From an uncultured Neisseria sp. (GTDB lineage: Bacteria; Pseudomonadota; Gammaproteobacteria; Burkholderiales; UBA11063): a stretch of DNA of 64,000 nt. The notes under the pieces were generated by a model that did not search any database, had not been told where the DNA came from, and saw nothing but the letters and a program-made list of their open reading frames with translations. Location: contig CAZZAV010000002.1 of NCBI GenBank assembly GCA_964652705.1, positions 47,306-111,305 of the forward strand, given 5' to 3'. Shown one piece after another: positions 1-31,260 of this stretch (the first letter of the stretch is position 1; every line of letters begins with the position of its first letter). A program made the position numbers and the translations under genes.

Positions 1-2
1 AG

Positions 3-6815: not shown

Positions 6816-6862
6816 GCTAGTGTAGATTAAGTTATGCTTTTTACATCGAGGTGTGATATTTG

Positions 6863-9939: not shown

Positions 9940-9974
9940 TATGTTATTTTTCTTAGTTGTATGGGAGATTTATA

Positions 9975-11180: not shown

Positions 11181-11231
11181 ATTTAATATTATGTCTTCTA
11201 AGATTTATGCTACAAGCAACCTTCGGATTAA

Positions 11232-12149
11232 ATGAAAAAAATTATGATAAATATGTCAGTCGTTATGGCGACTTATAATGGTGCTAAATATATATCTGAG
11301 CAATTAGATAGTATCATTGCGCAAACCTTAGCTCCTGATGAAATTATCATTGTTGATGATTGTTCAAACGATAATACTTGGTTGGTTTTGAGTGAATATG
11401 CGCAGCGTTATCCGCAAATTAAACTTTATCGCAATGATGCTAATCTTGGGGTTGTTAAGACTTTTGAGGTTGCATTGATGTTATGTACTGGTGAATTTAT
11501 TGCACTTGCGGATCAAGATGATTATTGGTTACCGAATAAGCTTGAACTATTAATGGCGAATATTGGCAGCAACTGGCTAATCCATAGTGATGCTTATATT
11601 GTGGATGAGAGTCTTAATGTTATTAGTGAATCATATAACAGGATTAAACCTTATCATGACAATAGTTTAACTATGTATTTGCTACGTAACAATGTTACAG
11701 GTTGTACTGTATTACTTCATCGCGATTTATTAAAATTGGCATTACCGTTTCCACCCAATGTGATTATGCACGATCATTATTTGGCATTATGCGCTAAATA
11801 TTATGTTAAACTGATTTATTTGAATTTACCGTTATTGAAATATCGTCAACATGCTCAGAATGTAGTTGGCAGTGGAGAATCTCAGAGTTATTCGGCGATG
11901 GTTGCAAATTACCAAAAATACATTTTATTTTTGGATGGTTTATATTTTGCCAAAATTCAATTTGATCATGTTCAACTGGCTTGTGCTAAAAATTATTTTG
12001 TTTCCATTGTGAATGCACGCATGCCACAACTCGCTACGGTTAGAATGGTTAAGCAGTTATTCGGTTTAAAGAATGTTGTTGCATTATTTTTATATACGTT
12101 ATTTGGTAAGCGCTTTGCAAAATCTATGTTTGATAGAAAGAAAAGGTAG
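11232..12149 (+). CDS. GT2 glycosyltransferase (rhamnosyltransferase-like)
   Basis: SVVMATYNG, IVDDCS, ALADQDD, TGCT, MHDHYL and YRQH. Confidence 0.85.
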   Translation: MKKIMINMSVVMATYNGAKYISEQLDSIIAQTLAPDEIIIVDDCSNDNTWLVLSEYAQRYPQIKLYRNDANLGVVKTFEVALMLCTGEFIALADQDDYWLPNKLELLMANIGSNWLIHSDAYIVDESLNVISESYNRIKPYHDNSLTMYLLRNNVTGCTVLLHRDLLKLALPFPPNVIMHDHYLALCAKYYVKLIYLNLPLLKYRQHAQNVVGSGESQSYSAMVANYQKYILFLDGLYFAKIQFDHVQLACAKNYFVSIVNARMPQLATVRMVKQLFGLKNVVALFLYTLFGKRFAKSMFDRKKR

Positions 12150-12212
12150 TTCGATTGCTTATAAATTTTAACATAAGAAATCAATTTAACCAATTTATAA
12201 AAAGGATTTGAT

Positions 12213-12986
12213 ATGAAATGTGTGATCTTAGCAGGCGGTTTAGGTACTCGTTTATCTGAGGAGACGGTCTCGCGTCCAAAGCCGATGGTAGAAATTGGTG
12301 GTAAGCCCATTTTATGGCATATTATGAAACTTTATTCCTATTATGGTGTAAATGAATTTATTATTTGTTTGGGATATAAAGGTTATGTAATCAAAGAGTA
12401 TTTTGCGAATTATTTTTTGCATATGTCGGATGTAACTTTTGATATGTCGAATAATCAGATGACGGTGCATAATCAACATGCTGAGGCATGGAAAGTTACA
12501 TTGGTGGATACAGGTGATGAATCTATGACTGGTGGACGTTTGGCACGAGTAAAAGATTATGTTAAAGATGAAGAAGTTTTTTGCTTTACCTATGGCGATG
12601 GCGTTAGTGATGTAAATATTAATGATTTGATTGCCTATCATCAACAGCATGGTAAATTAGCTACGCTCACTGCTGTTACACCACCAGGTAGATTTGGCGC
12701 ATTAGATATTCAAGCTGGTAAAATTCGTAGTTTTAAAGAAAAGCCTAAAGGTGATGGAGCTTTGATTAACGGTGGGTTCTTTGTGTTATCGCCTAAAGTA
12801 ATTGATTTGATTGATGGTGATAGTTGTGTTTGGGAACAAGGACCTTTAGAGAGCCTCGCAAAAAGCTCTGAGTTAATGGCGTTTGATCATGATGGATTTT
12901 GGCAGCCAATGGATACGCTGCGTGATAAGCATCATTTGGAAGAGTTGTGGAGCTCGAATAAAGCGCCGTGGAAGTTATGGAAATGA
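12213..12986 (+). CDS. rfbF: Glucose-1-phosphate cytidylyltransferase
   Basis: [29 protein letters not shown] and [11 protein letters not shown]. Confidence 0.97.
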
Positions 12987-14056
12987 TAAATTCTCAATTT
13001 TGGCAAGGTAAGAAGGTTTTACTAACTGGTTGCACGGGCTTTAAAGGTAGCTGGATGACTATTTGGTTGAATATGCTGGGTGCTAAAGTGTTCGGTTATT
13101 CATTAGCCGCACCAACTAATCCCTCGATGTGGGAAGATATGCAGCTTGAGGCGCTATGTGCTGAGATGTGTTATGCCGATATTCGTGATTATGCTCGGTT
13201 GGAGAGCTATCTTCAGCAGGTGCAGCCTGAGATTGTTATTCATATGGCGGCGCAGCCGTTGGTGCGTTATTCATACCTACATCCACGTGAAACCTATGAA
13301 GTGAATGTAATGGGCACGGTTAATTTACTTGATGCCATTCGTAATACTGGATTTGGGCGTGCCGTGGTAAATGTGACGACTGATAAATGTTATGAAAATA
13401 AAGAATGGCTATGGGCTTATCGTGAAAATGAACCGATGGGTGGGCATGACCCTTATAGCAATAGTAAAGGTTGTTCTGAATTAGTTACATCAGCGTTTAT
13501 TAATTCGTATTTTGGACATTCAGATAGCCAAACGTTTGTTGCCAGTGGCCGTGCGGGTAATGTAATTGGCGGTGGTGATTGGGCCGAAGACCGCTTAATT
13601 CCTGATATCATTCGTAGCTTTAGCAAAAATGAGCCTGTTAGTATTCGTTTTCCAAATGCGGTGCGTCCTTGGCAACATGTGCTTGAACCACTTTCGGGTT
13701 ATTTATTGTTAGCTGAAAAATTATATAACGACAAACAGTATTATGTTGGCGGCTGGAATTTTGGTCCACTTGATAGCGATACCAAAACAGTTGCACAAAT
13801 TGTGGATCAGATGTGTGCTATTTGGGGCGATGTTGCAAGTTGGAGTCGCGATGGGAATGATAATCCACATGAAGCGAATTTATTACGCCTAGATTGTTCC
13901 AAAGCACGAATGTTGCTGAATTGGCAACCAGCTTGGAATAGTCAAATAACTTTAACTAAATTAACTTTATGGTATAAGGCTTATTTTGCAGGGCAGGATA
14001 TGTTAGATTTGAGTAAACAACAAATTAATGAGTATATGAAGGATATGCAATGCTAG
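12983..14056 (+). CDS. rfbG: CDP-glucose 4,6-dehydratase
   Basis: [35 protein letters not shown] and [14 protein letters not shown] overlap with rfbF. Confidence 0.97.
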
Positions 14057-15360
14057 AACAATTGCAAACAGAAATTTTAGATTTAGTGGGTAAATTTGCA
14101 GAGCAAAAATATGTTGCAAAACCATTTATAGCTGGTGAAACGGTTATTCCTCCAGCTGGTAAAGTTATTGGTGAATTAGAGCTTAAGTATATGGTTGAGG
14201 CTTCGTTAGATGGTTGGTTAACCACTGGGCACTTTAATACTAAGTTTGAACAAGGTTTGGCTAAATATTTGAACGTTAAACATTTAATTACGGTTAATTC
14301 TGGTTCATCAGCAAATTTGGTTGCTTTTAGTACCTTGACCTCGTATAAGCTTGGTGAGCGTGCTATAAAGCCTGGGGATGAAGTGATTTCAGTGGCGGCA
14401 GGATTTCCAACGACAATTAATCCAATTCTTCAACAGGGTGCTGTGCCAGTTTTTTTAGATGTTGATATCCCTACTTATAATATTGACGTAACTAAGTTGG
14501 AAGATGCGATTACTTCTAAAACTAAGGCAGTATTTATTGCGCATACTTTAGGCAATCCATTTAACCTAAAAGCTATCCGTGAGATTTGTGATAAATATAA
14601 GTTGTGGCTAATTGAAGATTGTTGTGATGCTCTTGGTTCAAAATATGATGGTAAACGAGTTGGTACTTTCGGTGATATAGGGACCGTTAGTTTTTATCCA
14701 GCTCATCATATAACTATGGGTGAAGGCGGTGCTGTATTTACGAATAATGATGAATTAAAAGTGATCGCTGAATCATTCCGCGACTGGGGGCGTGATTGTT
14801 ATTGTAATCCTGGTTGTGATAATACCTGTGGTAAACGTTATTGTCAACAGCTCGGTAAATTGCCTTTTGGTTATGATCATAAATATACATATTCTCATTT
14901 AGGTTATAATCTTAAAATTACAGATATGCAAGCTGCATGTGGTTTAGCTCAATTGGAACGCCTAGATGGATTTGTAGAGAAACGTAAAGAGAATTTCGAT
15001 TATTTAAAAAATAAATTACAAGAGTGTGCTGAGTTTTTAGTCCTACCTGAGGCAACTGAGAACTCAGAGCCTTCATGGTTTGGTTTCCCGATTACCATTA
15101 AGGAAAATGCTGGCTTTAAGCGTACCGATTTGTTGAATTACCTTGAAGATAATAAAATTGGCACACGGTTACTTTTTGCAGGAAATGTGACTAAACAGCC
15201 TTATATGCAAGGACGCAATTATCGCGTTGTAGGTGAGTTAATTAATTCTGATCGAATTATGAACCAAACTTTTTGGGTTGGAATTTATCCTGGTTTAACT
15301 GAGGAAATGTTAGACTTCACGGCAGAAACTATCAGCCAATTTTGTGGTGTTGGATTCTGA
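14050..15360 (+). CDS. rfbH: CDP-4-keto-6-deoxyglucose 3-dehydratase (E1)
   Basis: [16 protein letters not shown] and [14 protein letters not shown] (His in place of the PLP Lys). Also [14 protein letters not shown] and [14 protein letters not shown]. Confidence 0.96.
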
Positions 15361-15370
15361 AAGTGAATAA

Positions 15371-17149
15371 ATGAGCAAGATAAAAGCATCTGATTATATT
15401 GTTGAATGGTTTAGTAAAAATGGCGTAGACACTGTTTTTGGTTATCAAGGTGGTATGGTAACACATATTGCGGATTCTATAAATAATCATCCTATGGTTA
15501 GCTTTATACAGGCATATCATGAACAAAGTGCCGCTTTTGCGGCAGTTGGTTATGCACGATATAGGAATAGTATAGGTGTAGCTATTGCCACGAGTGGACC
15601 TGGTGCTACAAATATGATAACTGCTATTGCAGATGCTTTTTTTGATTCTGTTCCTGTGATTTTTATTACTGGTCAGGTAAATGCTTATGAATATAAATAT
15701 GATAGACCGATTAGACAGTTGGGGTTTCAAGAAACTAATGTTGTTGATATGGTTAAACCTATAACAAAATACGCTGCACTAGTTGATAAGGTTGAGGATA
15801 TTCCATTAGCCCTTGATAATGCTTTAAAAATTGCTTTGAGTGGCAGAATGGGTCCAGTTTTATTAGATTTGCCTATGAATGTGCAACGAGAGTTTATTAA
15901 TTTAGATGATGTAAGCCAGTGTGCATTTGTATGTTCTGATGAGCAGTTACCGGTATTCAATATCAATATAGATAATATTTTATCTGTAATAAATGAATCA
16001 AGTAAACCGCTTGTGTTAATAGGTGGTGGGGTATATAAAGACAATTGTGCCAAGGAAGTATTTGACTTTCTTAATAAAAATAATTTGCCTTTTATATCCT
16101 CTTTACATGGTAAAAATTCGTGTGATGAAACATCTGACTTATATCTTGGTACGATCGGTTCTTATGGCAATCGGTGTGCTAATATGGCATTAGGAAGTGC
16201 AGACTTGCTAATTGTATTGGGTGCGAGATTAGATGTTCGTCAAACTGGAGGTCTGCTAACTGGTTTTTTGCCACATGGTCAAATTATTCAAGTTGATATA
16301 GATGCCAATGAATTAAACTATGGTAGGGTAATAAATAAAAAATTAAACATAAATACCAACATAAGAAGTTTTATTGAAGCCTTGGAATCAATAGATTTAT
16401 TTGAATATAATCCTTCTTGGGTAAATTATTTAACCAATCTTAAATGCAAATATAATCAACAAAAAGAGATATTAAGAAATATAGACAATAGCTCTCCATA
16501 TAAACTGATGGAACTACTTAATAATACCGCGGAAGCAAATGATATTTTTTGTGCCGATGTTGGGCAGAATCAAATGTGGGCGATGCAAATGCTAAAGTTA
16601 CAAAAAAATCAACAGTTTCATACCTCTGGTGGCCTCGGTTCAATGGGGAGTTGCCTTCCAATCGCTGTAGGTATAGCGTTTGCAAAAAAAGACTCTTCTA
16701 CAGTATATGCAATTAATGGCGATGGTGGTTTGCATATGTCCTTACAAAGTTTGCTTTTAATTAGTCAATATGATTTACCAATTAAAGTTGTGCTCATCAA
16801 TAATAAAGCTCTTGGTATGATTACTCAGTTTCAGGAGTTATATTTTAATAATCAGATGGTTGGTACAAAGTTATCTGGTGGATATGCAGTTCCAAATTTT
16901 TTAGATATCGCAAGATCATATAACCTAAAGTATATTAAAGTTGATGTGACAAATAATCGCGAATTTAGTAATGATGAGTTTAGAGAGTTTTTTGTATCCA
17001 AAAATTGTATTTTAGAGTACGTTATTGATGATTGCAAGGTGTTTCCTAAGTTAGAATTTAATCAACCTAGTTATAATCCTTCACCAGTTTTACCTGAAGA
17101 CGAACTTTTGGATAATATGTTGATTACATCAGCTGAGGTGAATCAATAA
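15371..17149 (+). CDS. ThDP-dependent acetolactate-synthase-like enzyme, YerE-like (branched-chain sugar biosynthesis)
   Basis: Catalytic HEQSAAFAA, TSGPGATN and the ThDP motif GDGG...NN. It lies 10 nt after rfbH, with no AHAS small subunit nearby. Confidence 0.75.
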   Translation: MSKIKASDYIVEWFSKNGVDTVFGYQGGMVTHIADSINNHPMVSFIQAYHEQSAAFAAVGYARYRNSIGVAIATSGPGATNMITAIADAFFDSVPVIFITGQVNAYEYKYDRPIRQLGFQETNVVDMVKPITKYAALVDKVEDIPLALDNALKIALSGRMGPVLLDLPMNVQREFINLDDVSQCAFVCSDEQLPVFNINIDNILSVINESSKPLVLIGGGVYKDNCAKEVFDFLNKNNLPFISSLHGKNSCDETSDLYLGTIGSYGNRCANMALGSADLLIVLGARLDVRQTGGLLTGFLPHGQIIQVDIDANELNYGRVINKKLNINTNIRSFIEALESIDLFEYNPSWVNYLTNLKCKYNQQKEILRNIDNSSPYKLMELLNNTAEANDIFCADVGQNQMWAMQMLKLQKNQQFHTSGGLGSMGSCLPIAVGIAFAKKDSSTVYAINGDGGLHMSLQSLLLISQYDLPIKVVLINNKALGMITQFQELYFNNQMVGTKLSGGYAVPNFLDIARSYNLKYIKVDVTNNREFSNDEFREFFVSKNCILEYVIDDCKVFPKLEFNQPSYNPSPVLPEDELLDNMLITSAEVNQ

Positions 17150-18165
17150 TGGCATATGATGTAAGTTTAGGTAATATTAATTTGACTTTGCTTGCAAGCA
17201 AAAAGATTTTTATCACTGGTGGGACTGGTTTTTTGGGTAAAAATCTGCTGAAATTTTTAACCGATAATGATATTAATCCACATAATGTGACTATTTTAAC
17301 GCGTAATGAGAAGAAATTTAGGCAACAATTCCCAGAATTATCCAATCAAGAATGGCTAAACTTTGAGCAATCAGATATTAGAGAGCTACAGTGGAACAAT
17401 CATGAGTATGATTACTTTATCCATGCTGCAACAAGCGTTATAGATCAAGCAGATTCTGGAACCTTATTTGATGAAATAGTTATAGGAACCAAACAAGCCT
17501 TGATATTTGCTGAATTAGCTGGTGTTAAGAGTTTTATAAATATAAGCTCAGGAGCTGTTTATCAAACTAATTTTTTACTTAAAGGAATAACTGAAAATTC
17601 TCCATTGGTTCATCAATTAGATAATTACAAAAACACTTATGCAATAGCTAAAATAAGTGGCGAACATTTGGCATACTTATCTACGCATAATAAGACAATG
17701 AAAGTTACTACTCTACGGTGCTTTTGTTTTGCTGGTAGATATTTGGAATCAACTCATTTTGCAATAGGAGATTTTGTACAAAAAGCACTTAATCATGAAG
17801 ATATAATTGTACAGTCGGGTAATGGTGTTTATCGCTCTTATTTAACTGGAGCTGATTTGGCAAGACAAATATTTGAAACGTTGGCTTTATCTGAAATTCG
17901 CGCAAATAATTACGAGGTATTTAACCTTGGGTCTGATATTGCAATAAGCTTACCTGATTTGGCACATAAAGTAGTCGCAGTTTTAGGTGGTAAGTCCAAA
18001 GTTACTATACCAAATATAAACCATACAGATATTAACTATTATGTGCCAAATGTTGATAAGCTGCAACATTTGTTAAACAGTGATGTTAGAGCACTAGATT
18101 TAATTATTTTAGAAACTGCACAGTATTATAGCGAATTGTTTTATCAAGTAGGTAAATGGTGCTAA
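17149..18165 (+). CDS. Extended SDR NAD-dependent epimerase/reductase (YerF-like or 4-ketoreductase)
   Basis: ITGGTGFLG, SSGAVY and YAIAK. Translationally coupled to the ThDP gene (TAATG). Confidence 0.8.
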   Translation: MAYDVSLGNINLTLLASKKIFITGGTGFLGKNLLKFLTDNDINPHNVTILTRNEKKFRQQFPELSNQEWLNFEQSDIRELQWNNHEYDYFIHAATSVIDQADSGTLFDEIVIGTKQALIFAELAGVKSFINISSGAVYQTNFLLKGITENSPLVHQLDNYKNTYAIAKISGEHLAYLSTHNKTMKVTTLRCFCFAGRYLESTHFAIGDFVQKALNHEDIIVQSGNGVYRSYLTGADLARQIFETLALSEIRANNYEVFNLGSDIAISLPDLAHKVVAVLGGKSKVTIPNINHTDINYYVPNVDKLQHLLNSDVRALDLIILETAQYYSELFYQVGKWC

Positions 18166-18235
18166 TTAACATTTGGTGAATTTTATATACTTGATCAGTT
18201 AATAAAGCTGTTGATTTTATGAGAAAGGTTAGTTG

Positions 18236-19528
18236 ATGAAGATGCCAAAAACATTATTGATTGCTTCTGCTGGTTGGTCTAACAGAATTATTGCGGCATC
18301 AGTGCAAATTATTTCGATCCCTATCTTTATTCGGCTATTGGGGTTGGATGGTTATGCTGCATTTTCAGTTGTTTCTGGATTCATCTGTTGGTTTGCTTTA
18401 GCTGAGCTTGGTCTTGGTAGTGTTTTACAAAATGAAATTTCTGCACGCCAAGCGAGACATCAAGCATTAGATGGTGTTATTGAGAGACATCTTTCAATAT
18501 TAATTTTTACCACTATATTTTGTATCTTGCTTTATATCCCATTGAGTTTTTTAGTTAATCATTGGTTATCGAATACCTTCAGTTCATATCAGTATTTATT
18601 ATTGATTGCTGGTTGTTTTTATATGTTTTTATTTAACTCGAATGTAGTTTATAAGATATTTTTTGCTAAGCATTGTGGTTATATTAGTTATATTTTTCAG
18701 AGTATCGGTAATTTATTGTGGTTTGGGATTTTATTGTTGCTTACGTTTTGGAGTAAATTAAAGTTTTCTCCTGAACTGATTATTCTTGTAACCCTAATTC
18801 CTCAGATCTGTGTTTCACTTTTTCTGTATACTCGGCTTGAAATAAATTGGAAGAATGTTTGTAGTTTTCCTTCAGTTACTCTTTTTCAAGAGTACAAATC
18901 CATACTAAAAATGTCTATGAATTTTTTTTGGGTTAGCTTGATGTCCAATTTTGTTTTGGGTGTTGATTATTTTTTTATTGCAAAATTTTTAAACCAACAT
19001 GACATTGTAACCTACAATATTATTAATAAAATATACATTTTTGTTGCTTTTGGTTATAGCGTTTTATTAGCATCATTGTGGCCAATTTTATCCGAGTTAT
19101 ATGTTATTGGCGAAAAGTCTAGCTACAGGAAAGCTAATCGTACTTTAGTCAAATATATATTTTCTGCATTTTTTTACGTAATTTTTGCGTCTTCATTAAT
19201 TATAATATTTCGTGGTTATATCTCTTCAATCTTAGCTAAGTCAGCTATTGAGATATCAGTTCAATTAATTGTTTTATTCTGTGTATACTATTGTATTCGT
19301 GTTATCGTCGATTTCATTTGTGTAGCATTACAAAGTCGTGGTCAAGTGAGGGTTTTAATGGTAACAGCGCCACTACAAGCAATAGCAACCATTTTATTGA
19401 TGAAGGCTTTTGTGAATAAATATGCACTAATGGGAATTATGTATGCTTTAATACTGGGTTTTATTTTAACTGCATTTTGGATCTTACCAGTTTCTTATTT
19501 TCGGGGGAATAACCGTGCAACAGAATAA
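18236..19528 (+). CDS. wzx: Wzx O-unit flippase, RfbX type
   Basis: About 12 TM segments. LGSVLQNEIS, VDYFFIA, LWPILSEL and IRVIVD..LQS recall the Salmonella group B RfbX as I remember it. Confidence 0.8.
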   Translation: MKMPKTLLIASAGWSNRIIAASVQIISIPIFIRLLGLDGYAAFSVVSGFICWFALAELGLGSVLQNEISARQARHQALDGVIERHLSILIFTTIFCILLYIPLSFLVNHWLSNTFSSYQYLLLIAGCFYMFLFNSNVVYKIFFAKHCGYISYIFQSIGNLLWFGILLLLTFWSKLKFSPELIILVTLIPQICVSLFLYTRLEINWKNVCSFPSVTLFQEYKSILKMSMNFFWVSLMSNFVLGVDYFFIAKFLNQHDIVTYNIINKIYIFVAFGYSVLLASLWPILSELYVIGEKSSYRKANRTLVKYIFSAFFYVIFASSLIIIFRGYISSILAKSAIEISVQLIVLFCVYYCIRVIVDFICVALQSRGQVRVLMVTAPLQAIATILLMKAFVNKYALMGIMYALILGFILTAFWILPVSYFRGNNRATE

Positions 19529-20513
19529 AAAAATACTTTCAATTGCTATTCCCACTTACAATCGTAGTCATTATTTGGAGTTATTATTAGCATCGATACT
19601 TAGACAATATGACAGTTGTGCTTCATTAATTGAAATTATCATTTCGGATAATGCTTCAACTGATACAACTAATTTGGTTGTAAATAAGTATATTGAATAC
19701 GGACTAGAGATTCAATATGTACGTAATTCAAATAATTTAGGCGCCGATAGAAATATTGCTCAAGCTTTTATGTTGTCTTCATGTGAGTATGTTTGGGTTA
19801 TGGGTGATGATGATTATTTCTTAGATAAAGCCATTATTACTGTTTTAGATCTTATTCAAAATAATAGTAAAACTCCGCTTGGTATTATTTATCTTAATGC
19901 TACATCAGATAAAGTTGATATTAATTCTCAGGTCGGAGAAATTGAGTTTCAACAAAATATTTCTAGGGATGAGTTTGTAAAAAAAATAAACGTGTTTTTA
20001 ACTTTTATTTCTGGTAATGTGGTTAATAAAAAGATATTTTTGAATAATTATAATATAGAATCAATTAATCAATACATGGATACAAACTTGGTACAGTTGG
20101 GGTGGATATATCGGATAATTATTAATAGTAATAATTTTGCAATAATTGATACAAAGCTTTTATTTGCTCAGGCTGATAATTCTGGTGGATATAACATATT
20201 TAATGTTTTTGCCGTACATCAATCTAAAATTGCTCGTGCTGAGTTAAATAAATTTCCTAAGTATATAGCGTGGATTGAAAAAGGAACTATGTTGAAGTGT
20301 TTTCCTGTCTGGATTTATCTTCATTTATGTGAGGGATTAACTACATTTGATAAGTATGAGGTAGATATCTTTCAGGTTCTACAGCGATCTTACGGGAAGT
20401 ATTATGAGTATTGGATTTTTATTTATCCAATGAAGTTTATGCCAAATGTAATTCGGCGTATATTTAAAAAGATAGTTGTTTCTTTTTGGAATTTTAGTGT
20501 ACGATTCAGATAG
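19515..20513 (+). CDS. GT2 glycosyltransferase, RfbV/WbaV-like (candidate dideoxy/branched-sugar transferase)
   Basis: IAIPTYNR, ISDNASTD, NLGADRN and WVMGDDD. GTG start overlapping wzx. Confidence 0.7.
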   Translation: MQQNKKILSIAIPTYNRSHYLELLLASILRQYDSCASLIEIIISDNASTDTTNLVVNKYIEYGLEIQYVRNSNNLGADRNIAQAFMLSSCEYVWVMGDDDYFLDKAIITVLDLIQNNSKTPLGIIYLNATSDKVDINSQVGEIEFQQNISRDEFVKKINVFLTFISGNVVNKKIFLNNYNIESINQYMDTNLVQLGWIYRIIINSNNFAIIDTKLLFAQADNSGGYNIFNVFAVHQSKIARAELNKFPKYIAWIEKGTMLKCFPVWIYLHLCEGLTTFDKYEVDIFQVLQRSYGKYYEYWIFIYPMKFMPNVIRRIFKKIVVSFWNFSVRFR

Positions 20514-20566
20514 TATTTAGGTTTGTTTGATATGTGGTTTTAAAGATTTATTTATTACATTATTAG

Positions 20567-22849
20567 GTGATAAACTATTTTATGGTAAAAGTATTAAATT
20601 TTTTCAGTATGTTGAAACGAATTGAAAATAAAAAATTTTTATTCAAGATAATTTTAATTGATCTATTTATGGGTAGGCTATTTCAGTTTAAAATATACTA
20701 TAAGACTATTATCTTAAATAACGTCTCTTCATCAATTAGAACGCATAAATTTATTAGCAGTCCAAAAGATGACCGTGTTTTTGCAGGAATTAAGAAAATT
20801 TTCCTAGAGCATAATGGTAAATTATATATTAATTCAGTTGAATTTGGTGGAGCGTTCTCTTACATTCAAAATACATCTAAGAATTTTCCCGCTTTAATTT
20901 TTAATTCTACTGCGACCGATGTGATGCAAACTAATGTTGAATTTATTTTTGCTGAAATTAATCATGTGTTTGCGGTTCATGATCTTGTATCGTTGATTAA
21001 AGAGTTTAATATTTCTAGTTTGATTGTTAATCATTTGATTTGGTCAAGAAATTTCTTGATTGTAGACGAAATTATTCACATTGCTAAAATTATGCGTCTT
21101 GAAGTGTCTGTAATGGTTCATGACTTTTTTTATCTTTGCCCAAGCTTTAATTTATTGAATGATAAGGGGGAGTTTTGTAATTTGCCAGATGAAGCCACAT
21201 GCCGCAATTGTTTAAGTAGGTTGCATTTGGGTAATACATCACCTGATTTAGTTATTTATCGTGATACTATTAGGCTTTATCAAGGGAATCATGTCCTTAC
21301 ACATCATGAATGGAGGGGCAGATTTAATGCATTATTTGACTGTGCTTCAAGTATTATTTTTCCATCAAATTCTGCCCGAAATTTATTTTTAAAGATATTT
21401 GTACAGTTTGCGGACAAAAGTCAAGTCATTCATCATGATTTACGCTACCTTTCTCAGATCAATTCATTAACGACTATTCCAAAATCAGCAACTATGTGCG
21501 TGGCGATGATGGGAGATATTAAATATCACAAGGGGCGAAAAATATTAGAGCAAATCGTGCTTGCCAGTAGTAAGAATAAATTGAAAATTTCATTTTTAAT
21601 TATTGGCAGTTGTGATAGTGGAATAATAGCACGATCAGAAAACACTATTGTGTTAAATAAATATGCAATATCGGACTTAAATTCTATTTTGATTAAGCAT
21701 CAGGTAAGTTTATTTTTATTTTTGAGTATTTGGCCAGAAACTTTTTCATTTGTAATTCATGAGATGATGCGGGTTGAATTACCTATTATTTCCTTTAACT
21801 TGGGTGCTCCTGGTGAGTTCTTGAGTAATTATAAAGATGCTACGTTAATTAATGAGGTGTCATTTCAAGCAATTTATAATGCTTTATTACTCAAGTACTA
21901 TACTTATCAAGCAGGTCTACCCAATCGGGCAGAACTATTTAACTCATTTTCTATTTCAGTTGCAATGGCGACATATAATGGTGAAAAATATATTCAAGAG
22001 CAACTCGAGAGTATTTTGAAACAAACTCTTCCTGCTCAGGAAATTATTATTGTGGATGATTGTTCTACTGATTCAACATGGTCAATCCTTGAGAGTTTTG
22101 CAGCATACCATGAGTGCATTAAGATTTACAAAAATCCCAATAATTATGGTGTAGTAAAAACATTCAATCGGGCTTTGTCTTTGACCAATGGTGAGTATAT
22201 CGCATTAGCTGACCAAGATGATTTTTGGGTTTCGCATAAGTTAGAGGTTTTGATTGCTAATATTGGAGATAATTTATTAATTCATAGTGACGCTTATGTT
22301 GTTAATGATAAATTGCAGATAATTAATTCTTCTTTCTTAGGAACCAAGGCATTTACCAAAAAAATTAGTAATTATTTTGTGTTTAATGATGTACATGGAT
22401 GCACTGCGTTGGTTAGGCGTGAGCTGTTGAATTTAGCTTTGCCAATTCCTGATGGATTTTATTTACATGATCATTATTTGGCTATTTTTGCTGCTGCACT
22501 CAAGAAGATTACTTATATTGATCAGCCATTAATTTATTATCGTCAGCATGAGGCAAATGTGGTTGGAGTTAATAAAATAGACGACTATGAAGATTATCAG
22601 AACCATTTTCGTGTGTTGCATGATAGCTTAACTTTATTATCCCATCCTTCTTTTAAGCAAAGTTTGGAGTTGTCATATGGAGTTGATTTTTATCGTTCAA
22701 ACTTACTAAATACTCCAGCAGGGTTTAGAACTTACTGTTGGTATTTTAAAAATTTTTCATTGGCACGTTCGATATTTTTTGTTGGCAGAACTTGCTTTGG
22801 TCGTAGAATTGGGCGCTTAATTTTTAAGCTTAGAAATAAAATACAATGA
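20567..22849 (+). CDS. Bifunctional glycosyltransferase (GT4-like N-terminal + GT2 C-terminal)
   Basis: N-terminal HDFFYLCP, KG and SIWPETFSFVIHE. C-terminal VAMATYNG, DDCSTD and LADQDD. Confidence 0.8.
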   Translation: MINYFMVKVLNFFSMLKRIENKKFLFKIILIDLFMGRLFQFKIYYKTIILNNVSSSIRTHKFISSPKDDRVFAGIKKIFLEHNGKLYINSVEFGGAFSYIQNTSKNFPALIFNSTATDVMQTNVEFIFAEINHVFAVHDLVSLIKEFNISSLIVNHLIWSRNFLIVDEIIHIAKIMRLEVSVMVHDFFYLCPSFNLLNDKGEFCNLPDEATCRNCLSRLHLGNTSPDLVIYRDTIRLYQGNHVLTHHEWRGRFNALFDCASSIIFPSNSARNLFLKIFVQFADKSQVIHHDLRYLSQINSLTTIPKSATMCVAMMGDIKYHKGRKILEQIVLASSKNKLKISFLIIGSCDSGIIARSENTIVLNKYAISDLNSILIKHQVSLFLFLSIWPETFSFVIHEMMRVELPIISFNLGAPGEFLSNYKDATLINEVSFQAIYNALLLKYYTYQAGLPNRAELFNSFSISVAMATYNGEKYIQEQLESILKQTLPAQEIIIVDDCSTDSTWSILESFAAYHECIKIYKNPNNYGVVKTFNRALSLTNGEYIALADQDDFWVSHKLEVLIANIGDNLLIHSDAYVVNDKLQIINSSFLGTKAFTKKISNYFVFNDVHGCTALVRRELLNLALPIPDGFYLHDHYLAIFAAALKKITYIDQPLIYYRQHEANVVGVNKIDDYEDYQNHFRVLHDSLTLLSHPSFKQSLELSYGVDFYRSNLLNTPAGFRTYCWYFKNFSLARSIFFVGRTCFGRRIGRLIFKLRNKIQ

Positions 22850-23775
22850 TGAGTAATGAGTTGATTATTTCAGTTGCGATGGCAACTTACAATGGTGAAA
22901 AATATCTCAGAGAGCAATTGGATAGTATTCTGGTACAGACTCGTTTGGTTGATCAAATTATTGTTGTTGATGATGGATCTTCTGACAGTACGCTGTTGAT
23001 ATTGGATGAATATAAGCAACGTTATGAAAATATAAAGGTATTTTCAAATAAGATAAATTTAGGCGTTGTCAAAAGTTTTGAACTAGCGATTAGTTTGTGC
23101 TCAGGTGATTATATTGCTTTGTCTGATCAAGATGATGTGTGGTTTCCCAATAAAATTGCAGTGTTATTAGAACAAATAGGTAATAATTTACTCATTCATA
23201 GTGATGATGTTTTAGTTGATGATAGCTTGCAAGTAATTGAATCATCGCATTTTGCTTGGGGGAAACAGGTAGACAAAACTAACTTCTTTGATTATTTGGT
23301 GAATGTAAACGTTACGGGTTGTACTGTGATGTTTTCGCGTGAGTTAGTTAATTTAGCCTTACCATTTAAAAGTTATTCTTTGCCTCACGATTGGTATCTG
23401 ACCTATTATGCCGCATATCTATCAAGAATAAAATTATATTTACAACCTTTGTTGTATTATCGGCAGCATGAAATTAATGTCTCTGGAGCTCGTAAGAAGA
23501 CATTTGCACAATATGTTAGAAATTGTGTAGAAGTTGGTCTTGGGTTAAATGATGTTCTAAAAGATGATTTTTTTAGACGTGATTCTGATTTGATATTAAT
23601 GCGTAATTATAAGCAAGGAGTTGCTAAGCGCTCTTTACTAGGTTATAGAGAAACCTTTCAATTACTTAGAAAAGGTAAAGTTGGTTGTAAATTATTGATA
23701 TTTTATTGGCTGATGACGCTTCCTCCTTTATCGCTTAGTGAGAAAATTTACAATATAATTAGAAAGTATATTTAA
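22846..23775 (+). CDS. GT2 glycosyltransferase (paralogue of 11232-12149)
   Basis: VAMATYNG, VDDGSSD, LSDQDD, TGCT, PHDWYL and YRQH. Confidence 0.85.
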   Translation: MMSNELIISVAMATYNGEKYLREQLDSILVQTRLVDQIIVVDDGSSDSTLLILDEYKQRYENIKVFSNKINLGVVKSFELAISLCSGDYIALSDQDDVWFPNKIAVLLEQIGNNLLIHSDDVLVDDSLQVIESSHFAWGKQVDKTNFFDYLVNVNVTGCTVMFSRELVNLALPFKSYSLPHDWYLTYYAAYLSRIKLYLQPLLYYRQHEINVSGARKKTFAQYVRNCVEVGLGLNDVLKDDFFRRDSDLILMRNYKQGVAKRSLLGYRETFQLLRKGKVGCKLLIFYWLMTLPPLSLSEKIYNIIRKYI

Positions 23776-23784
23776 CAAAACATT

Positions 23785-23793
23785 TGCTACAAT
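23785..23793 (+). promoter_or_regulatory. Extended -10 promoter (TGcTACAAT) for the GT4-wbaP unit
   Basis: TGnTACAAT in the short intergenic gap, 30 nt before ATG 23823. Confidence 0.45.
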
Positions 23794-23822
23794 TTTAAAT
23801 TTATAAAGTGAAGAATATATTT

Positions 23823-24959
23823 ATGAAAATAGCCATAGTTCATGACTGGCTTTACACGTATGCTGGAGCTGAAAAGGTTTTAGAGCAAATTATTCAGTGT
23901 TTTCCAGAAGCAGACTTATTTAGTTTAATCGACTTTATTCCAAATGGTAAGCGTGATTTTATTGCAAATAAAGTTGTGAAAACTTCATTTATTCAGAACT
24001 TGCCATTGGCAAAAACTAAGCATCGCCATTATTTGCCATTGATGCCATTAGCAATTGAACAATTGGATGTAAGTGATTATGATGTGGTTATCAGCAGTTC
24101 ACATGCCGTTGCTAAAGGTGTTTTAACAGGTCCAAATCAATTACATATTTGTTACTGTCATTCACCAATTCGTTATGCTTGGGATATGCAACATCAGTAT
24201 TTACGTGAAGCAGGAATTACGCGAGGTTTTAAATCATGGCTTACACGCTATATTTTACATAAAATTCGGTTGTGGGATTATCGTACAGCTAATGGTGTAG
24301 ATTATTTTGTTGCCAATTCTAATTTTATTGCGCGAAGAATTTTTAAAGTTTATCGCCGTGACGCTAGTGTGATTTACCCAAATGTGGACATTGATAAATT
24401 CACGCTACAAAGTGACAAACAAGATTATTATTTAACCGCATCGCGCTTGGTTCCATATAAAAAAATTGTTTTAATTGCTGAAGCTTTTGCCAAAATGCCA
24501 GATAAACAATTGAAAATTGTTGGTACTGGTCCTGATCAAAAGAAAATTGCAGCTTTGGTGGCAACCGCACCTAATATAGAATATTTGGGATTTGTGGAAG
24601 ATAATGGTCTGGTTAATTTAATGCAAAATGCAAAAGCTTTTGTGTTTGCTGCAGAAGAGGATTTTGGAATTATTCCAGTTGAAGCTCAAGCCTGTGGTAC
24701 ACCAGTCATTGCTTATGGGCGCGGCGGAAGTCTTGAGACTGTAAATGGATTAAACAGTAGTTGCCCAACAGGAGTATTTTTTAATGAACAAAAAATTGAC
24801 AGTATCCTTGCCGCAATATCCCAATTTGAAAATCAGAATGTAATAACTTCTGATAATTGTCGTCAAAATGCGCTACGTTTTTCAGCACCGCGCTTTAGAT
24901 CTGATTTTCAGCAATTTGTGGAGCGTAAATATCAAGAATTTTGTGCGGGTATAAATTAA
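23823..24959 (+). CDS. GT4 glycosyltransferase (WbaZ-like mannosyltransferase)
   Basis: MKIAIVHDWL...GAEKVL, SRLVPYKK and EEDFGIIPVEAQACG. Confidence 0.8.
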   Translation: MKIAIVHDWLYTYAGAEKVLEQIIQCFPEADLFSLIDFIPNGKRDFIANKVVKTSFIQNLPLAKTKHRHYLPLMPLAIEQLDVSDYDVVISSSHAVAKGVLTGPNQLHICYCHSPIRYAWDMQHQYLREAGITRGFKSWLTRYILHKIRLWDYRTANGVDYFVANSNFIARRIFKVYRRDASVIYPNVDIDKFTLQSDKQDYYLTASRLVPYKKIVLIAEAFAKMPDKQLKIVGTGPDQKKIAALVATAPNIEYLGFVEDNGLVNLMQNAKAFVFAAEEDFGIIPVEAQACGTPVIAYGRGGSLETVNGLNSSCPTGVFFNEQKIDSILAAISQFENQNVITSDNCRQNALRFSAPRFRSDFQQFVERKYQEFCAGIN

Positions 24960-26374
24960 TGAAAAAGTTTTTATTACAAAAATGTGCTTTGGTAATGATC
25001 GATTTATTTTCATTGATATTTACTTATTGGCTTAGCATCCAGTTAGCGAATGTCGTTGAGCCAACTAGGGTGCATCGTTTTGATACTGATCACTTGGTAT
25101 TGGTTAAGGCGTTGAATGCGTTGGCAGTTATAGCCTTATTTTGGATTGCGGAGCTGTATGCAAAACGCCGTCCAACTTGGGAAGAGTTACGTATTATTTA
25201 TAAGCAGATTATGTATATTTTGGTGCTTGATTTTGTCGTAATTTCTTTGAGTAGGTCTGAGCATGTAACTTATTTATTTTTCTTTATGTTTTGGGCAATG
25301 CTGTTCATAATTCTACCATTGTTCAGGACATTTGCAATCCGAATTTTGTTACATTATAAATTATGGCAGCGTACTGTGTATATTGTTGGTTGTGGTGAGA
25401 CAGCACTGATGGCATATAATTTGCTTAAAAATCGCCGCTTAATGGGTTATCAGATTGCTGGTTTTGTTAATTTTGACGCGAGTAAAGAAATAACTAATTT
25501 AGAGCTTGATGGTAATTTTGTCCAAGTTTTAAATCTTGAGCAATTATTATCCCGTAGTCGGTATAGTGAAATTGTAGTTGCTTTGGATTCATTAGAGATG
25601 GTTAATAATTTGCAAAAAATTTTTAGTCTACAACGGCATTTTATTTTTGTGAGTTTGGTTCCTGATTTAGAGGGGCTTTCTCTATATGGTATGGAAATTA
25701 CGCATTTTTTTGGTAATGAACAGTTAATGTTGCGCTTGGAGAATAATCTAAATCGGCGCTTAAATAGATTGGTTAAAAAGATATTTGATTATCTAGTAGT
25801 TGTTGCATGTTTACCATTTATTGTGCCAATTATGATACTAATTAGTTTGTTTATTTTCTTAGAAGACAGGGGTAATCCATTTTTTATTCAGCCTCGGATT
25901 GGCAGAAATGGACGAGTGTTTGGTTGCTTTAAATTTCGTAGCATGCATAAAAACGCAGAAAAAATGTTGTTACAGTGGCGAGATGAAAATAATTTAATTT
26001 ATCAAGAGTATGTTGCAAACAATTTTAAATTAGCAAATGATCCGCGAGTAACGAGTATTGGACGGTTTTTACGTAAAACCAGCTTGGATGAGTTGGGGCA
26101 GTTGATCAATGTATTGCGCGGAGAAATGAGCTTAGTTGGTCCGCGTCCGTTGATTGAGCGTGAAATTGTTGATTATAATGATGGATTATTTTATTATAAA
26201 ATGGTGAGCCCTGGTATAACTGGAATGTGGCAAGTTAGTGGACGTAGTAAAACTTCTTTTAGTGATCGTTGCCGTTTGGATAGCTGGTACATCAAAAATT
26301 GGTCTCTTTGGTATGATGTTGTTATCTTGTTGAAAACGTTTGGAGTAGTTTTAAAGCGTGATGGAGCACATTAA
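24959..26374 (+). CDS. wbaP: Undecaprenyl-phosphate hexose-1-P transferase (WbaP-type initiating enzyme)
   Basis: N-terminal TM domain, then [28 protein letters not shown] and [13 protein letters not shown]. Confidence 0.9.
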
Positions 26375-26462
26375 TTGTGGCTTATTTATAAAAATCGTTC
26401 TAGTGATGATTAAATAAGTGTATAATTAAGGTTGAATTTTATTATTTTTTAGGAGTAGTGTC

Positions 26463-26987
26463 ATAAGCACTGAAAAGCAAACCCGTATCAATGGTGCGAT
26501 TAATGTACCCGAGGTTCGTTTAATTATTGATGAAACTAGTGAGCAGCTAGGAGTTGTTAGCATTCGTGAAGCATTGGCTAGGGCTGAAGAACTGCAATTA
26601 GATCTAGTGGAAATTTCTCCCAATGCCAATCCACCTGTATGCAAAATTATGGATTTTGGTAAATTTAAGTACCATGAGCAGAAAAAAGCTCATGCTGCTA
26701 AACAAAATCAAAAGCAGGTGCATGTCAAGGAAATTAAATTTCGCCCCGTGACTGATGATCATGATTATGAGATTAAAATGCGTAACGCAAGGCGTTTTTT
26801 GGAAGATGGCGATAAAGTTAAATTTATTGTACAATTTCGTGGACGTGAGATGGCTCATCAAGAGTTGGGTCTGCGTTACTTATTACGTGCTGAACAAGAT
26901 TTGATTGATTTAGTCGTAGTTGAATCTAAACCAAAAGTCGAAGGTCGTAATGCAATTATGATTGTGGCACCGAAAAAGAAAAAATAA
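26463..26987 (+). CDS. infC: Translation initiation factor IF-3, non-canonical ATA start
   Basis: AGGAG (26451-55) lies 7 nt before ATA at 26463. The continuous frame [21 protein letters not shown]...[11 protein letters not shown] joins the ORF-track protein with KEIKFRP and FRGRE. Confidence 0.95.
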
Positions 26988-26996
26988 GAGAGTAGT

Positions 26997-27869
26997 ATGA
27001 AAGTAAGCGGTTTTACTTTTCTGCGAAATGGAACAATTTTAGGCTATCCCTATGTGGAAAGCCTAAAATCATTATTGGCAGTTTGTGATGAAGTAGTAGT
27101 TGCACTTGGTGATAGTGATGATGACACTTTGGAGCAAGTTAAGGCTATTAATGATCCGCGTCTAAGAGTTATTCAAACTACGTGGAATGAAAATATGCAG
27201 GATCGTGGTTATACTTACGCGCAACAAAAGATGATTGCACAGTTCAATTGTACAGGTGATTGGGCATTTTATCTTGAGGGTGATGAAGTAATTCATGAGC
27301 AAGATTACGCAACGATTCGTGCTGCAATGGAAAAACATCTTGATGATAAGGATGTTGAAGCTCTAGTTTTTGATTACTATCATTTTTACGGTTCACCGAC
27401 TACCTATGCGTATTCTCCGCGTTGGTATCGTCGTGCGCCTCGAATTATTCGTAATAGTGTACGATCTTGGGCACCAGACGGTTTATTTTGGCTGATTATG
27501 AGTGAAAATAAGCGTGGACGTTATCCAAATGCAGCCTTGGTTGGTTGCCATTTGTATCATTATGGTCATGTGCGTTCAGTAGCCAAAATGAATGAAAAAC
27601 ATAAGCGAGTTGCTCATTATTGGGGGCAAAAATTGCCTGAGTTTGAGGGGTATGGCGATATTGACTCACAGAGTATTCTGAATTTTACGCAGACCCACCC
27701 TGCAATTTTAAAGCATTGGCTTGCGAATGATGCAGAGCAGAAGTTTGTTGCTAATATGGATTATCAGCTTTCAAAACGTGACAAAAAACATCGTTTAGTA
27801 AGTAAACTTGAGAAAATTCTTGGCGGTAAAGATTTTACTAAGAAACATTATAAGTTGATTAGAAAATAG
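26997..27869 (+). CDS. GT2-like glycosyltransferase
   Basis: MKVSGFTFLRNG..LGYP, DWAFYLEGDE and HYGHVR. Confidence 0.75.
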   Translation: MKVSGFTFLRNGTILGYPYVESLKSLLAVCDEVVVALGDSDDDTLEQVKAINDPRLRVIQTTWNENMQDRGYTYAQQKMIAQFNCTGDWAFYLEGDEVIHEQDYATIRAAMEKHLDDKDVEALVFDYYHFYGSPTTYAYSPRWYRRAPRIIRNSVRSWAPDGLFWLIMSENKRGRYPNAALVGCHLYHYGHVRSVAKMNEKHKRVAHYWGQKLPEFEGYGDIDSQSILNFTQTHPAILKHWLANDAEQKFVANMDYQLSKRDKKHRLVSKLEKILGGKDFTKKHYKLIRK

Positions 27870-31217: not shown

Positions 31218-31260
31218 ATTAATTCGCAAGCACAGATGCTTTATGTTTTTTGGAGATTTT

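Follow-up and report, generated by a model that had tools for sequence, protein, structure and literature searches.

A predicted Wzx-type flippase gene in a branched-sugar cassette within an ABC-transporter-dependent O-polysaccharide operon: a tentative model of one starter with two exits

In textbooks, assembly of O-antigens through Wzx/Wzy and assembly through ABC transporters figure as alternatives, each with genes of its own. ABC systems of the Escherichia coli O8/O9a and Klebsiella O5/O12 type comprise Wzm, Wzt with a carbohydrate-binding domain, and a WbdD-like terminator, together with multidomain glycosyltransferases (GTs), initiation by WecA, and ligation by WaaL. The wbm route of Bordetella also uses an ABC exporter. 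In this betaproteobacterium, the band A trisaccharide (wlb) is an unpolymerised unit on lipid A-core, and the O polymer is encoded by the adjacent wbm cluster (PMC2279256). In the galactose-initiated O-antigen clusters of Yersinia pseudotuberculosis and Salmonella enterica, ddhA/B/C (rfbF/G/H) and the rest of the side-branch sugar module are followed by wzx and the transferase of that sugar, the main-chain GTs come next, and the initiating phosphoglycosyl transferase (PGT) stands last; wzx varies together with the sugar of the side branch, and wzy may sit outside the cluster (PMC5399914, PMC3715488). The ogcXABEI genes of Burkholderia, which serve PglL, encode an initiating transferase, a few GTs, and a flippase of the Wzx type, whereas Wzy and Wzz are lacking (10.1101/2024.11.21.624715). 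Furthermore, the lactococcal and streptococcal dual-chain Rha-CWPS systems unite in one locus an ABC exporter for the rhamnan and a Wzx-family flippase (WpsG/GacK), with a GT-C enzyme (WpsJ/GacL) (PMC9574508).

The locus described here lies on a DNA stretch of 64,000 nucleotides (the window), in which all features with window coordinates are on the plus strand; positions prefixed C2 are those of the whole contig. A CDP-sugar module at 12213–18165, recognised by NCBIfam and Pfam, comprises rfbF, rfbG, rfbH, a gene for a ThDP (YerE-like) enzyme, and an SDR (YerF-like) gene, with NCBIfam scores of 502 bits for CDP-glucose 4,6-dehydratase, 757 for RfbH, and 422 for an acetolactate-synthase-like protein. 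Two genes overlapping by 14 nucleotides follow, wzx (18236–19528) and a GT2 gene (19515–20513), and these coordinates bear out the original prediction that a Wzx and a GT come after the branched-sugar genes. The order rfbFGH-ThDP-SDR-wzx-GT2 is kept in four other contexts, and the seven genes appear to form a movable cassette of side-branch sugar module, wzx, and sugar transferase. The arrangement, with further GTs and a PGT at the end, is that of the Yersinia and Salmonella clusters; by contrast, the window cassette lies inside an ABC-transporter operon, in a locus without Wzy or Wzz, its flippase is too divergent for Pfam, and no ddhD-like gene was noted beside rfbFGH. The GT2 (332 amino acids; Pfam GT2 81.9 bits) has no transmembrane (TM) segment, its NCBIfam matches are all Leloir GT2s, PglI and WcaA among them, and orthologues of 48–67% identity stand immediately 3′ of wzx in the loci L015, L016, and L040. 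It presumably transfers the branched dideoxy sugar, and its earlier description as RfbV-like holds by position and GT family only. The GT2 is always found together with wzx.

The wzx reading frame starts with ATG, has AGAAAGG 8 nucleotides upstream, and encodes 430 amino acids with 12 hydrophobic segments by TM prediction. The protein has no Pfam or NCBIfam match even at E ≤ 1 and no gathering-score match to Polysacc_synt, Polysacc_synt_3, MurJ, or MatE, a whole-genome scan with PF01943 did not pick it up, and profiles A1 and A3 gave no match among PDB sequences. Likewise, no related locus was found when the genome contigs were searched with the flippase protein alone. Its AlphaFold model (pLDDT 84.8) is all-helical, and Foldseek returned the lipid III flippase WzxE as the best match (9g9n/9g9p; E 2e-8 to 1e-7, TM 0.72–0.78), followed by MATE 6fhz and MurJ 6nc6; among 36 sampled relatives, 20 match MatE and 13 match Polysacc_synt. 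The earlier label of Wzx is thus upheld by modelled fold and by family, without a direct domain match, and the product is predicted to be a functional Wzx-type flippase of the MOP superfamily. The analysis thereby brings out a Wzx subfamily that annotation does not see; with its profile, about 23,000 cluster representatives are reached at E ≤ 0.001. The window's wzx itself is present in only three other species genomes. Compared with three orthologues from the same ABC-type locus, its dN/dS is about 0.10–0.15, values that are rough with dS near saturation, and the gene is under purifying selection. Translocation of an Und-PP-oligosaccharide is predicted for the flippase from its context, since the genes around wzx are those of sugar-nucleotide enzymes, GTs, and a PGT.

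No wzm or wzt had been seen at first, which is literally true inside the window; both genes lie just outside, 0.6–5 kb upstream of its first base, wzm at C2:42292–43086 (ABC2_membrane 70.8 bits) and wzt at C2:45443–46714 (ABC_tran 92.6 bits). Because they do, an ABC-transporter-dependent O-polysaccharide pathway appears complete at the gene level. The tail of Wzt is Wzt_C-like (27.8 bits, E 3e-6, under the gathering score of 30.4), a toxin-antitoxin-like pair and an arylsulfotransferase-like gene lie between wzm and wzt, and wzm/wzt orthologues occur in about 22 of the 38 genomes of the genus. The start of a first SAM methyltransferase gene (C2:46702–47706; Methyltransf_31/23/11) overlaps the wzt stop, 603 nucleotides before the window; its 3′ end, at 1–401, encodes a coiled-coil-like C-terminal tail with only a weak Csm1_N match. 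A second methyltransferase (426–1466; Methyltransf_31 72 bits) is a candidate chain terminator, and a bifunctional GT2+GT1 of 658 amino acids (1468–3444; Pfam) may be the processive polymerase that serves the ABC route. Methyl-capping of the ABC polymer is suggested by the two methyltransferase genes 3′ of wzt. A variable part of the operon follows at 6860–12149, with a HAD-like two-domain transferase, two GT1s, and GT2b (Pfam), the last 90–93% identical in other dideoxyhexose-bearing lineages. Downstream of the cassette, at 20567–26374, stand the conserved primer and adaptor genes for a GT1-GT2 fusion, GT2c, GT4, and PGT2 (Pfam; for PGT2, 24941–26374, Bac_transf 211 bits). A WaaL-type O-antigen ligase gene (28997–30220; Wzy_C 58 bits, no PglL_A or Wzy_C_2) adjoins a GT9 gene, and WaaL homologues occur in species with wzt and without the wzx cassette.

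Two GtrA/GtrB sets complete the inventory: gtrA1 and gtrB1 at 4798–6143 (GtrA_DPMS_TM 61.6 bits; Glycos_transf_2, a GT2 with two C-terminal TM helices), and gtrB2, gtrA2, and a PMT_2-like GT-C of 721 amino acids at 31243–34682 (Pfam). The coiled-coil methyltransferase, bifunctional GTs, and two Gtr systems that had been named from the sequence are all present in the window. The operon resembles the E. coli and Klebsiella ABC systems in its wzm, its wzt with a Wzt_C-like tail, its helical-tailed methyltransferases directly 3′ of wzt, its multidomain GTs, and its WaaL, and differs from them in that the initiator is a 3′-end Bac_transf PGT, not WecA, that wzm and wzt are separated by other genes, and that a Wzx cassette stands mid-operon. 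A promoter and terminator scan of 7500–27000 gave counts not above those of shuffled sequence, and operon boundaries are unreadable from it.

Comparison within the genus places the cassette more precisely. Six wzm/wzt species without a flippase in the operon (G037, G031, G035, G001, G016, and G032) have the order wzm-wzt-...-GT2c-GT4′-GT4-PGT2-infC, the GT2c/GT4/PGT2 orthologues being 45–77% identical to those at 20567–26374 and lying beside infC, and none of the six has a polytopic or MOP protein between wzt and PGT2. Since GT2c, GT4, and the PGT form the 3′ end of the ABC operon in these flippase-less sisters, the sugar-wzx-GT2 cassette is taken to be inserted inside the ABC operon, and sequence comparison puts the insertion point between its variable polymer-specific part and its conserved primer and adaptor part. 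A self-contained Wzx module reaching from rfbF to PGT2 was considered and dropped, the downstream GTs and PGT2 being orthologues of the 3′ genes of flippase-less ABC operons. Depending on the genome, this slot is occupied in the genus by wzm/wzt alone, by a flippase alone, or by the two together. In G018, wzm/wzt are missing; its corresponding operon combines the shared adaptor genes with a gene for a MOP protein and contains no Wzy candidate, so that a PGT2-primed oligosaccharide is a plausible Wzx substrate in the genus. A second lineage (L027) repeats the layout: wzt is present, the dideoxyhexose is another one, and the MOP flippase is only very distantly related. In all five variants of the thrS-infC type (the window's own, L015, L040, L041, and L027), only soluble GTs lie between wzx and the PGT; the L015 and L040 contigs end before the position where wzm/wzt would lie.

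Wzy proteins often escape all profile models, and in Salmonella groups B1 and D1 wzy is at the separate rfc locus. Profile searches found no Wzy-family protein or Wzz in the glycan region, taken as the roughly 65-kb thrS-infC-rpmI region, no match to EpsG or O-ag_pol_Wzy anywhere in the genome, and no polytopic reading frame between the window's wzx and PGT2. The Wzy_C matches in the genome are the WaaL-type protein and three PglL-type proteins of PglL_A + Wzy_C + Wzy_C_2 architecture, and the sole Wzz, a Wzz+GNVR protein, is encoded on contig C11, where a separate Wza/Wzc-type locus also has a wzx of its own and a Wzy candidate that has no Pfam match. The original prediction had described a locus without recognisable wzy or wzz and had set against this a wzy and wzz just outside the window; such an adjacent pair is not there, and the flanks contain wzm and wzt and no wzy or wzz. 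In gene content, wzx is embedded in a complete ABC operon without wzy/wzz, as had been proposed in outline, and the arrangement recurs in the second lineage.

The reading that we prefer, tentatively and with a little less than even confidence, is that one PGT-primed starter has two exits, as either a long Wzm/Wzt polymer or an unpolymerised, Wzx-flipped capped unit. PGT2 and the adaptor GTs would build one Und-PP-linked oligosaccharide as the branch point. At the first exit, the polymerising GTs would extend this oligosaccharide, which would then receive a methyl cap and leave through Wzm/Wzt; at the second, the GT2 would add the branched dideoxy sugar and Wzx would flip the single unpolymerised unit. 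The adjacent WaaL would ligate both products to lipid A-core, giving a long-chain form of LPS and a short form of core plus one unit. The model joins the observed gene identities, positions, and orthology, the locus without recognisable Wzy or Wzz, and the purifying selection on wzx with what we infer, a primer common to both routes, a unit that stays single, and its acceptance by WaaL. The earlier alternative of two interleaved glycans is closer to these data, although the glycans appear to share one primer and not to be independent. A parallel for an unpolymerised unit beside an O polymer is Bordetella, in which, unlike the window locus, wlb and wbm are separate units with their own genes and no dideoxyhexose cassette. 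The genome holds other possible primers, a second PGT upstream (43% identical) and WecA on contig C34; either could prime one of the two routes, and the primer would then not be shared. An orphan wzy may also exist elsewhere in the genome, which would speak against the model. What the locus presents is a flippase cassette under purifying selection in an ABC-type operon, without a polymerase, and it appears to share the initiating and adaptor transferases. If the shared-primer model is true, LPS could be switched or split between a long polymer and a short rare-sugar-capped form by gain or loss of the seven-gene cassette, which matters for the resistance of environmental bacteria to phages and grazers and for the evolution of O-antigen diversity.

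Among the alternatives, an ordinary Wzx/Wzy O-antigen made beside the ABC-dependent one, with an unrecognised Wzy polymerising the flipped units, is unlikely and survives best. In its gene order the cassette matches classical Wzy-dependent clusters, and the orthologous cassettes of G018 and G035 lie in loci with Wza and Wzz, each followed by a Wzy candidate, which in G018 is EpsG; EpsG, however, is absent from this genome, where the only Wzz belongs to the C11 locus, and none of the five thrS-infC-type variants has a polytopic protein between wzx and the PGT. The Wzy in question would be an orphan gene, invisible to Pfam as Wzy often is and as the C11 candidate is, or P0002 (3448–4797), an orphan polytopic membrane protein of 449 amino acids with 8–9 TM segments and a 157-residue loop. 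P0002 has no Pfam or NCBIfam match, and a homologue search among 5.8 billion proteins returned one relative, of 43% identity. Its fold is unclassified by model search (AlphaFold pLDDT 54, with meaningless Foldseek matches to GPCRs), hhalign gave no sign of a relation to the GtrC-like protein of L045 or the 556-residue protein of L027, and BLAST comparison with candidates for Wzy, WaaL, and GT-C found no similarity. It abuts gtrA-gtrB, as a GtrC would, and is presumed to be a GtrC-type GT-C, although it could alternatively be Wzy.

A true hybrid, in which the methyl-capped polymer exported by the ABC transporter would receive in the periplasm, through a GT-C, either a Wzx-flipped branched-sugar unit or the branched sugar linked to Und-P, seems improbable to us. 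A phosphoglycosyl transferase of the Bac_transf type makes Und-PP-linked donors, which are substrates of WaaL, Wzy, and PglL and not of Gtr-type GT-C enzymes. The PGT at the operon end would accordingly yield Und-PP-linked, not Und-P-linked, intermediates, the GT2 beside wzx lacks a TM anchor and is Leloir-like, and the two GT-C candidates (3448–4797 and 32517–34682) each stand beside their own gtrA/gtrB; on these grounds, the proposal that a separately flipped unit is joined outside the membrane by a GT-C was not sustained. A precedent does exist, in which a Wzx-family flippase works with a GT-C that grafts onto an ABC-made rhamnan (PMC9574508), and the window shares with it the ABC exporter and flippase in one locus and the presence of GT-C enzymes. 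The Rha-CWPS systems, however, belong to the cell wall of Gram-positive bacteria, and their side chain starts on Und-P with a GacI/WpsA-type GT2 and a small activator, and neither such a pair nor any GtrB/GacI-type polyprenyl-phosphate GT lies next to the window's wzx. Further points in favour of the hybrid are the purifying selection on wzx and the recurrence in L027 of wzt and a dideoxyhexose-MOP cassette in one operon, with another sugar and a very distant MOP. In L040 and L041, moreover, the last sugar enzyme, YerF, is fused to a GtrB-like polyprenyl-phosphate GT (DGDLQDPPE motif, two C-terminal TM segments), followed in L040 by gtrA, which hints that periplasmic delivery of the branched sugar is also possible; against this, the window's cassette and the whole genome hold no such GtrB-like domain. 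That the locus is a Gram-negative counterpart of the lactococcal dual-chain assembly, with one O-antigen, two export routes, and one operon, or a weaker version in which rare-sugar capping of a shared Und-PP primer is the switch from the ABC to the Wzx route, is in our view a slim prospect.

The flipped unit might instead feed protein O-glycosylation, with any of the three PglL-type oligosaccharyltransferases as the enzyme that transfers it, on the pattern of Burkholderia (ogcX + PglL) or Neisseria; we consider this doubtful to the same degree as the hybrid. PglL-type genes occur in 37 of the 38 genomes of the genus, and such a pathway needs a flippase and no polymerase, Wzx without Wzy being the norm in these systems (10.1101/2024.11.21.624715). 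Furthermore, the known substrates of PglL enzymes include O-antigen and capsule units. The genus nevertheless seems to have a dedicated flippase, since a different Wzx (contig C39) is kept in 34 of the 38 genomes and lies 4–9 kb from the main PglL in several, whereas the window's strain-variable wzx, with its few carriers, is in an LPS locus beside WaaL. The C39 wzx neighbourhood is not recognisable as a pgl-type set and holds GNAT, GT4, and hexapeptide acetyltransferase genes. Finally, it is very improbable that wzx is a passenger from a Wzy-dependent locus with no role here, the branched sugar being added to the ABC polymer in the cytoplasm: the cassette clearly moves between locus types and ABC pathways need no flippase, but the reading frame is intact, its dN/dS is low, and a very distant MOP protein fills the same slot in the L027 lineage.

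The gene at window positions 18236–19528 (+ strand) encodes a protein of 430 aa with 12 hydrophobic segments, is preceded by a ribosome-binding site (AGAAAGG, 8 nt 5′ of the start), and overlaps the following gene on the same strand. No Pfam or NCBIfam model matches the protein, even at E ≤ 1, and a whole-genome scan with PF01943 found three other Wzx-like genes and missed this one. The nearest relatives (56–78% identity) bear in some cases the annotation "O-antigen/teichoic acid export membrane protein"; two of them carry PF01943. A profile of the family retrieved 23,324 cluster representatives; among 36 sampled matches, MatE was found in 20, Polysacc_synt in 13, and MurJ in two. The best structural match of the AlphaFold model (pLDDT 84.8) is the lipid III flippase WzxE (E 2e-8, TM 0.72–0.78), followed by MATE and MurJ proteins. 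Owing to these names, domain matches, and fold match, the product is assigned, by sequence and predicted structure, to the Wzx-type flippases of the MOP superfamily. The gene is under purifying selection where it accompanies an ABC exporter (dN/dS 0.10–0.15, with dS near saturation), which makes it very improbable that wzx is a passenger gene. The adjoining gene (19515–20513, + strand) encodes a soluble 332-aa protein with a Pfam GT2 domain, resembling Leloir-type GT2 enzymes; the original prediction termed it RfbV-like, a label that is justified by GT family and position and by nothing beyond these two grounds.

The source assembly comprises 2.46 Mb in 99 contigs, with a GC content of about 33% and a completeness of 99.9%; the window covers C2:47306–111305. 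The 54 kb interval between thrS (C2:17310–19202) and infC (window 26574–26987) contains glycan genes throughout, and genes for core, ligase, and decoration functions occupy another 10 kb from infC to rplT. The ABC pathway, previously inferred from hallmarks, is complete because wzm (C2:42292–43086; ABC2_membrane) and wzt (C2:45443–46714; ABC_tran with a Wzt_C-like tail) are located just 5′ of the window; a methyltransferase gene following wzt runs from just upstream into window positions 1–401. Sister species have the two exporter genes side by side; in this genome, an arylsulfotransferase-like gene and a nucleotidyltransferase-substrate-binding (HEPN-like)/MNT-like pair come between them (C2:43096–45426; L001:15791–18121). 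Immediately 5′ of wzm are a further MNT/HEPN-like pair and a gene of the AAA-ATPase/PD-(D/E)XK type.

Among 38 surveyed species genomes of the genus, the window wzx is found in only three others, whereas orthologues of wzt and of the phosphoglycosyl transferase PGT2 (24941–26374) occur in about 22 and in 34, respectively. Six wzm/wzt-bearing species (G037, G031, G035, G001, G016, and G032) share the operon order wzm-wzt-...GTs...-GT2-GT2c-GT4′-GT4-PGT2-infC. From wzt to PGT2, this operon encodes neither a MOP protein nor any other polytopic protein, and its 3′ genes are 45–77% identical to window 20567–26374. Since these orthologues form the 3′ end of flippase-less wzm/wzt operons, the window genes are, judged by orthology, the ABC pathway's own primer/adaptor genes, and the sugar-wzx-GT2 cassette is inserted inside the ABC operon, with the variable part on one side and the conserved part on the other. 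A self-contained Wzx module from rfbF to PGT2, abutting an ABC module, was dropped because its 3′ genes belong to the ABC operon in the flippase-less species. One species, G018, lacks a wzt orthologue; the operon with these adaptor genes there encodes a MOP protein other than the window Wzx, without any Wzy candidate, and resembles a natural exchange of exporters within a single slot. This MOP protein (426 aa; L036, G018:C12, 11624–12904, − strand) lies upstream of GT2c-GT4′-GT4-PGT2-infC, and G018 has neither wzm nor wzt. A further lineage (L037 and L027/L038) has wzt with Wzt_C, a methyltransferase, RgpF/WsaF-type GTs, and a Gtr-like set, together with rfbFGH plus epimerase and reductase genes for a different dideoxyhexose and a very distantly related MOP protein (hhalign 94%), followed by GTs, a GT4, and a PGT. 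The wzm/wzt-only species, G018, and the own genome with the L037 lineage thus define three states of the slot, as gene content indicates: ABC exporter only, flippase only, and both.

The seven genes rfbF-rfbG-rfbH-ThDP enzyme-SDR-wzx-GT2 recur together as a block. In G018 (L016), the block is inside a capsule-type locus with Wza and Wzz, ending in WecA; G035 (L024) probably has it in a locus of this type, on a short contig that shows the 3′ part alone (ThDP enzyme, SDR, wzx, and GT2) and likewise terminates in WecA. A Wzy candidate follows the block in both (EpsG in G018). In the own genome, L015, L040, and L041 (Wzx 73–77% identical), the cassette is 5′ of GT4-PGT2-infC, with soluble GTs only between wzx and the PGT. 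The same order of side-branch sugar module, wzx, sugar transferase, main-chain GTs, and initiating transferase last is found in Yersinia pseudotuberculosis and Salmonella, in which wzx co-varies with the dideoxyhexose; in Salmonella B1/D1, wzy is at a separate locus (PMC5399914, PMC3715488). In the window, no ddhD/rfbI-type reductase gene was noticed beside rfbF, rfbG, and rfbH (12213–15360).

The original prediction that the locus lacks wzy and wzz was borne out, as none is recognisable there. EpsG and O-ag_pol_Wzy have no matches in the whole genome, and the sole Wzz (with GNVR) is encoded on contig C11, where a distinct locus reads Wza-Wzz-wzx-GT-[419-aa polytopic protein]. Four Wzy_C proteins occur genome-wide. 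The one in the window (407 aa) adjoins a GT9 gene, has neither PglL_A nor Wzy_C_2, and has homologues in species with wzt and without this wzx, and therefore fits WaaL; the remaining three combine PglL_A, Wzy_C, and Wzy_C_2, as is typical of O-oligosaccharyltransferases. Just one polytopic protein in the thrS-infC region is left unexplained, P0002 (3448–4797; 449 aa): a search of 5.8 billion proteins gave a single homologue (43%), no family model matches it, and its structure prediction is not usable. Its gene directly abuts gtrA, stop to start, and gtrA overlaps gtrB, a placement that would suit a GtrC.

From these gene identities and orthologies, we infer a shared primer, a single-unit fate, and a common ligase step, a proposal given slightly less than an even chance. 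PGT2 and the adaptor GTs would build a single Und-PP-linked oligosaccharide as the branch point. Multidomain GTs could elongate it for methyl capping and export via Wzm/Wzt; alternatively, the GT2 beside wzx would add the branched dideoxy sugar and Wzx would flip the single unit, either product being ligated by WaaL. Polymerisation of the flipped unit by a hidden Wzy is unlikely, as polytopic genes are systematically absent after wzx in this locus type. True periplasmic hybrid assembly has a lactococcal/streptococcal precedent (PMC9574508) and is favoured by the recurrence of the combination in a second lineage. It is also favoured by L041 (7807–9855) and L040 (7744–9950), with Wzx identities of 73–76%, in which the last sugar enzyme, a YerF-like reductase, forms a fusion with a GtrB/ArnC-like polyprenyl-phosphate GT2 domain (DGDLQDPPE motif, two C-terminal TM helices), with a GtrA gene next in L040; this suggests a route from CDP-branched sugar to Und-P-sugar for periplasmic glycosylation. 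However, this genome has no counterpart of the fusion domain, the GT2 next to wzx is soluble, a PGT terminates the operon, and each GT-C candidate already has its own GtrA/GtrB, so that such assembly is rather improbable here. Equally doubtful is supply of the flipped unit to PglL: PglL-type enzymes are present in 37 of the 38 genomes, but another Wzx is conserved in 34, separated from the main PglL by 4–9 kb in several of these. The three PglL-type paralogues (C23:3377–5113, − strand; C73:574–2421; C30:19771–21597) and the separate Wzx (C39:17774–19045, − strand) likely constitute a genus-wide protein O-glycosylation system.

Every component belongs to a known kind: the MOP flippase, the dideoxyhexose cassette including wzx and its GT, the ABC operon for O-polysaccharide including a capping enzyme, the WaaL ligase, and the Gtr sets. 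A wzx without wzy next to wzm/wzt has been noted in Oxalobacteraceae (PMC9834719), adjacent loci encode a non-polymerised unit and an O-polymer in Bordetella (PMC2279256), and a Burkholderia Wzx cluster without Wzy serves PglL. What is apparently new is the location of the cassette within an ABC operon whose initiating and adaptor transferases it appears to share; three states of one slot within a single genus and a Wzx subfamily invisible to annotation also seem new.

Upstream, C2:20222–35993 (L002/L001) holds a second Wzy-less module with gmd, an fcl-like gene, an aminotransferase, a weak Wzx-like gene (PF01943, 24 bits), a methyltransferase, GT6 beside GT11, GT2, GT1, AsnB-like, GT9, and DedA (VTT) genes, and a second PGT; its GT6, GT11, and GDP-fucose set recalls blood-group-like O-antigens such as that of E. 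coli O86. A 150-aa ORF (6363–6815) matching only positions 188–318 of the Acyl_transf_3 model is probably a truncated acyltransferase remnant. With an ATG, GTG, or TTG start, infC encodes only 137 aa, with most of IF3_N absent, against 183–189 aa in relatives' gene calls, which is consistent with the unusual (AUU-type) start codon known for this gene.
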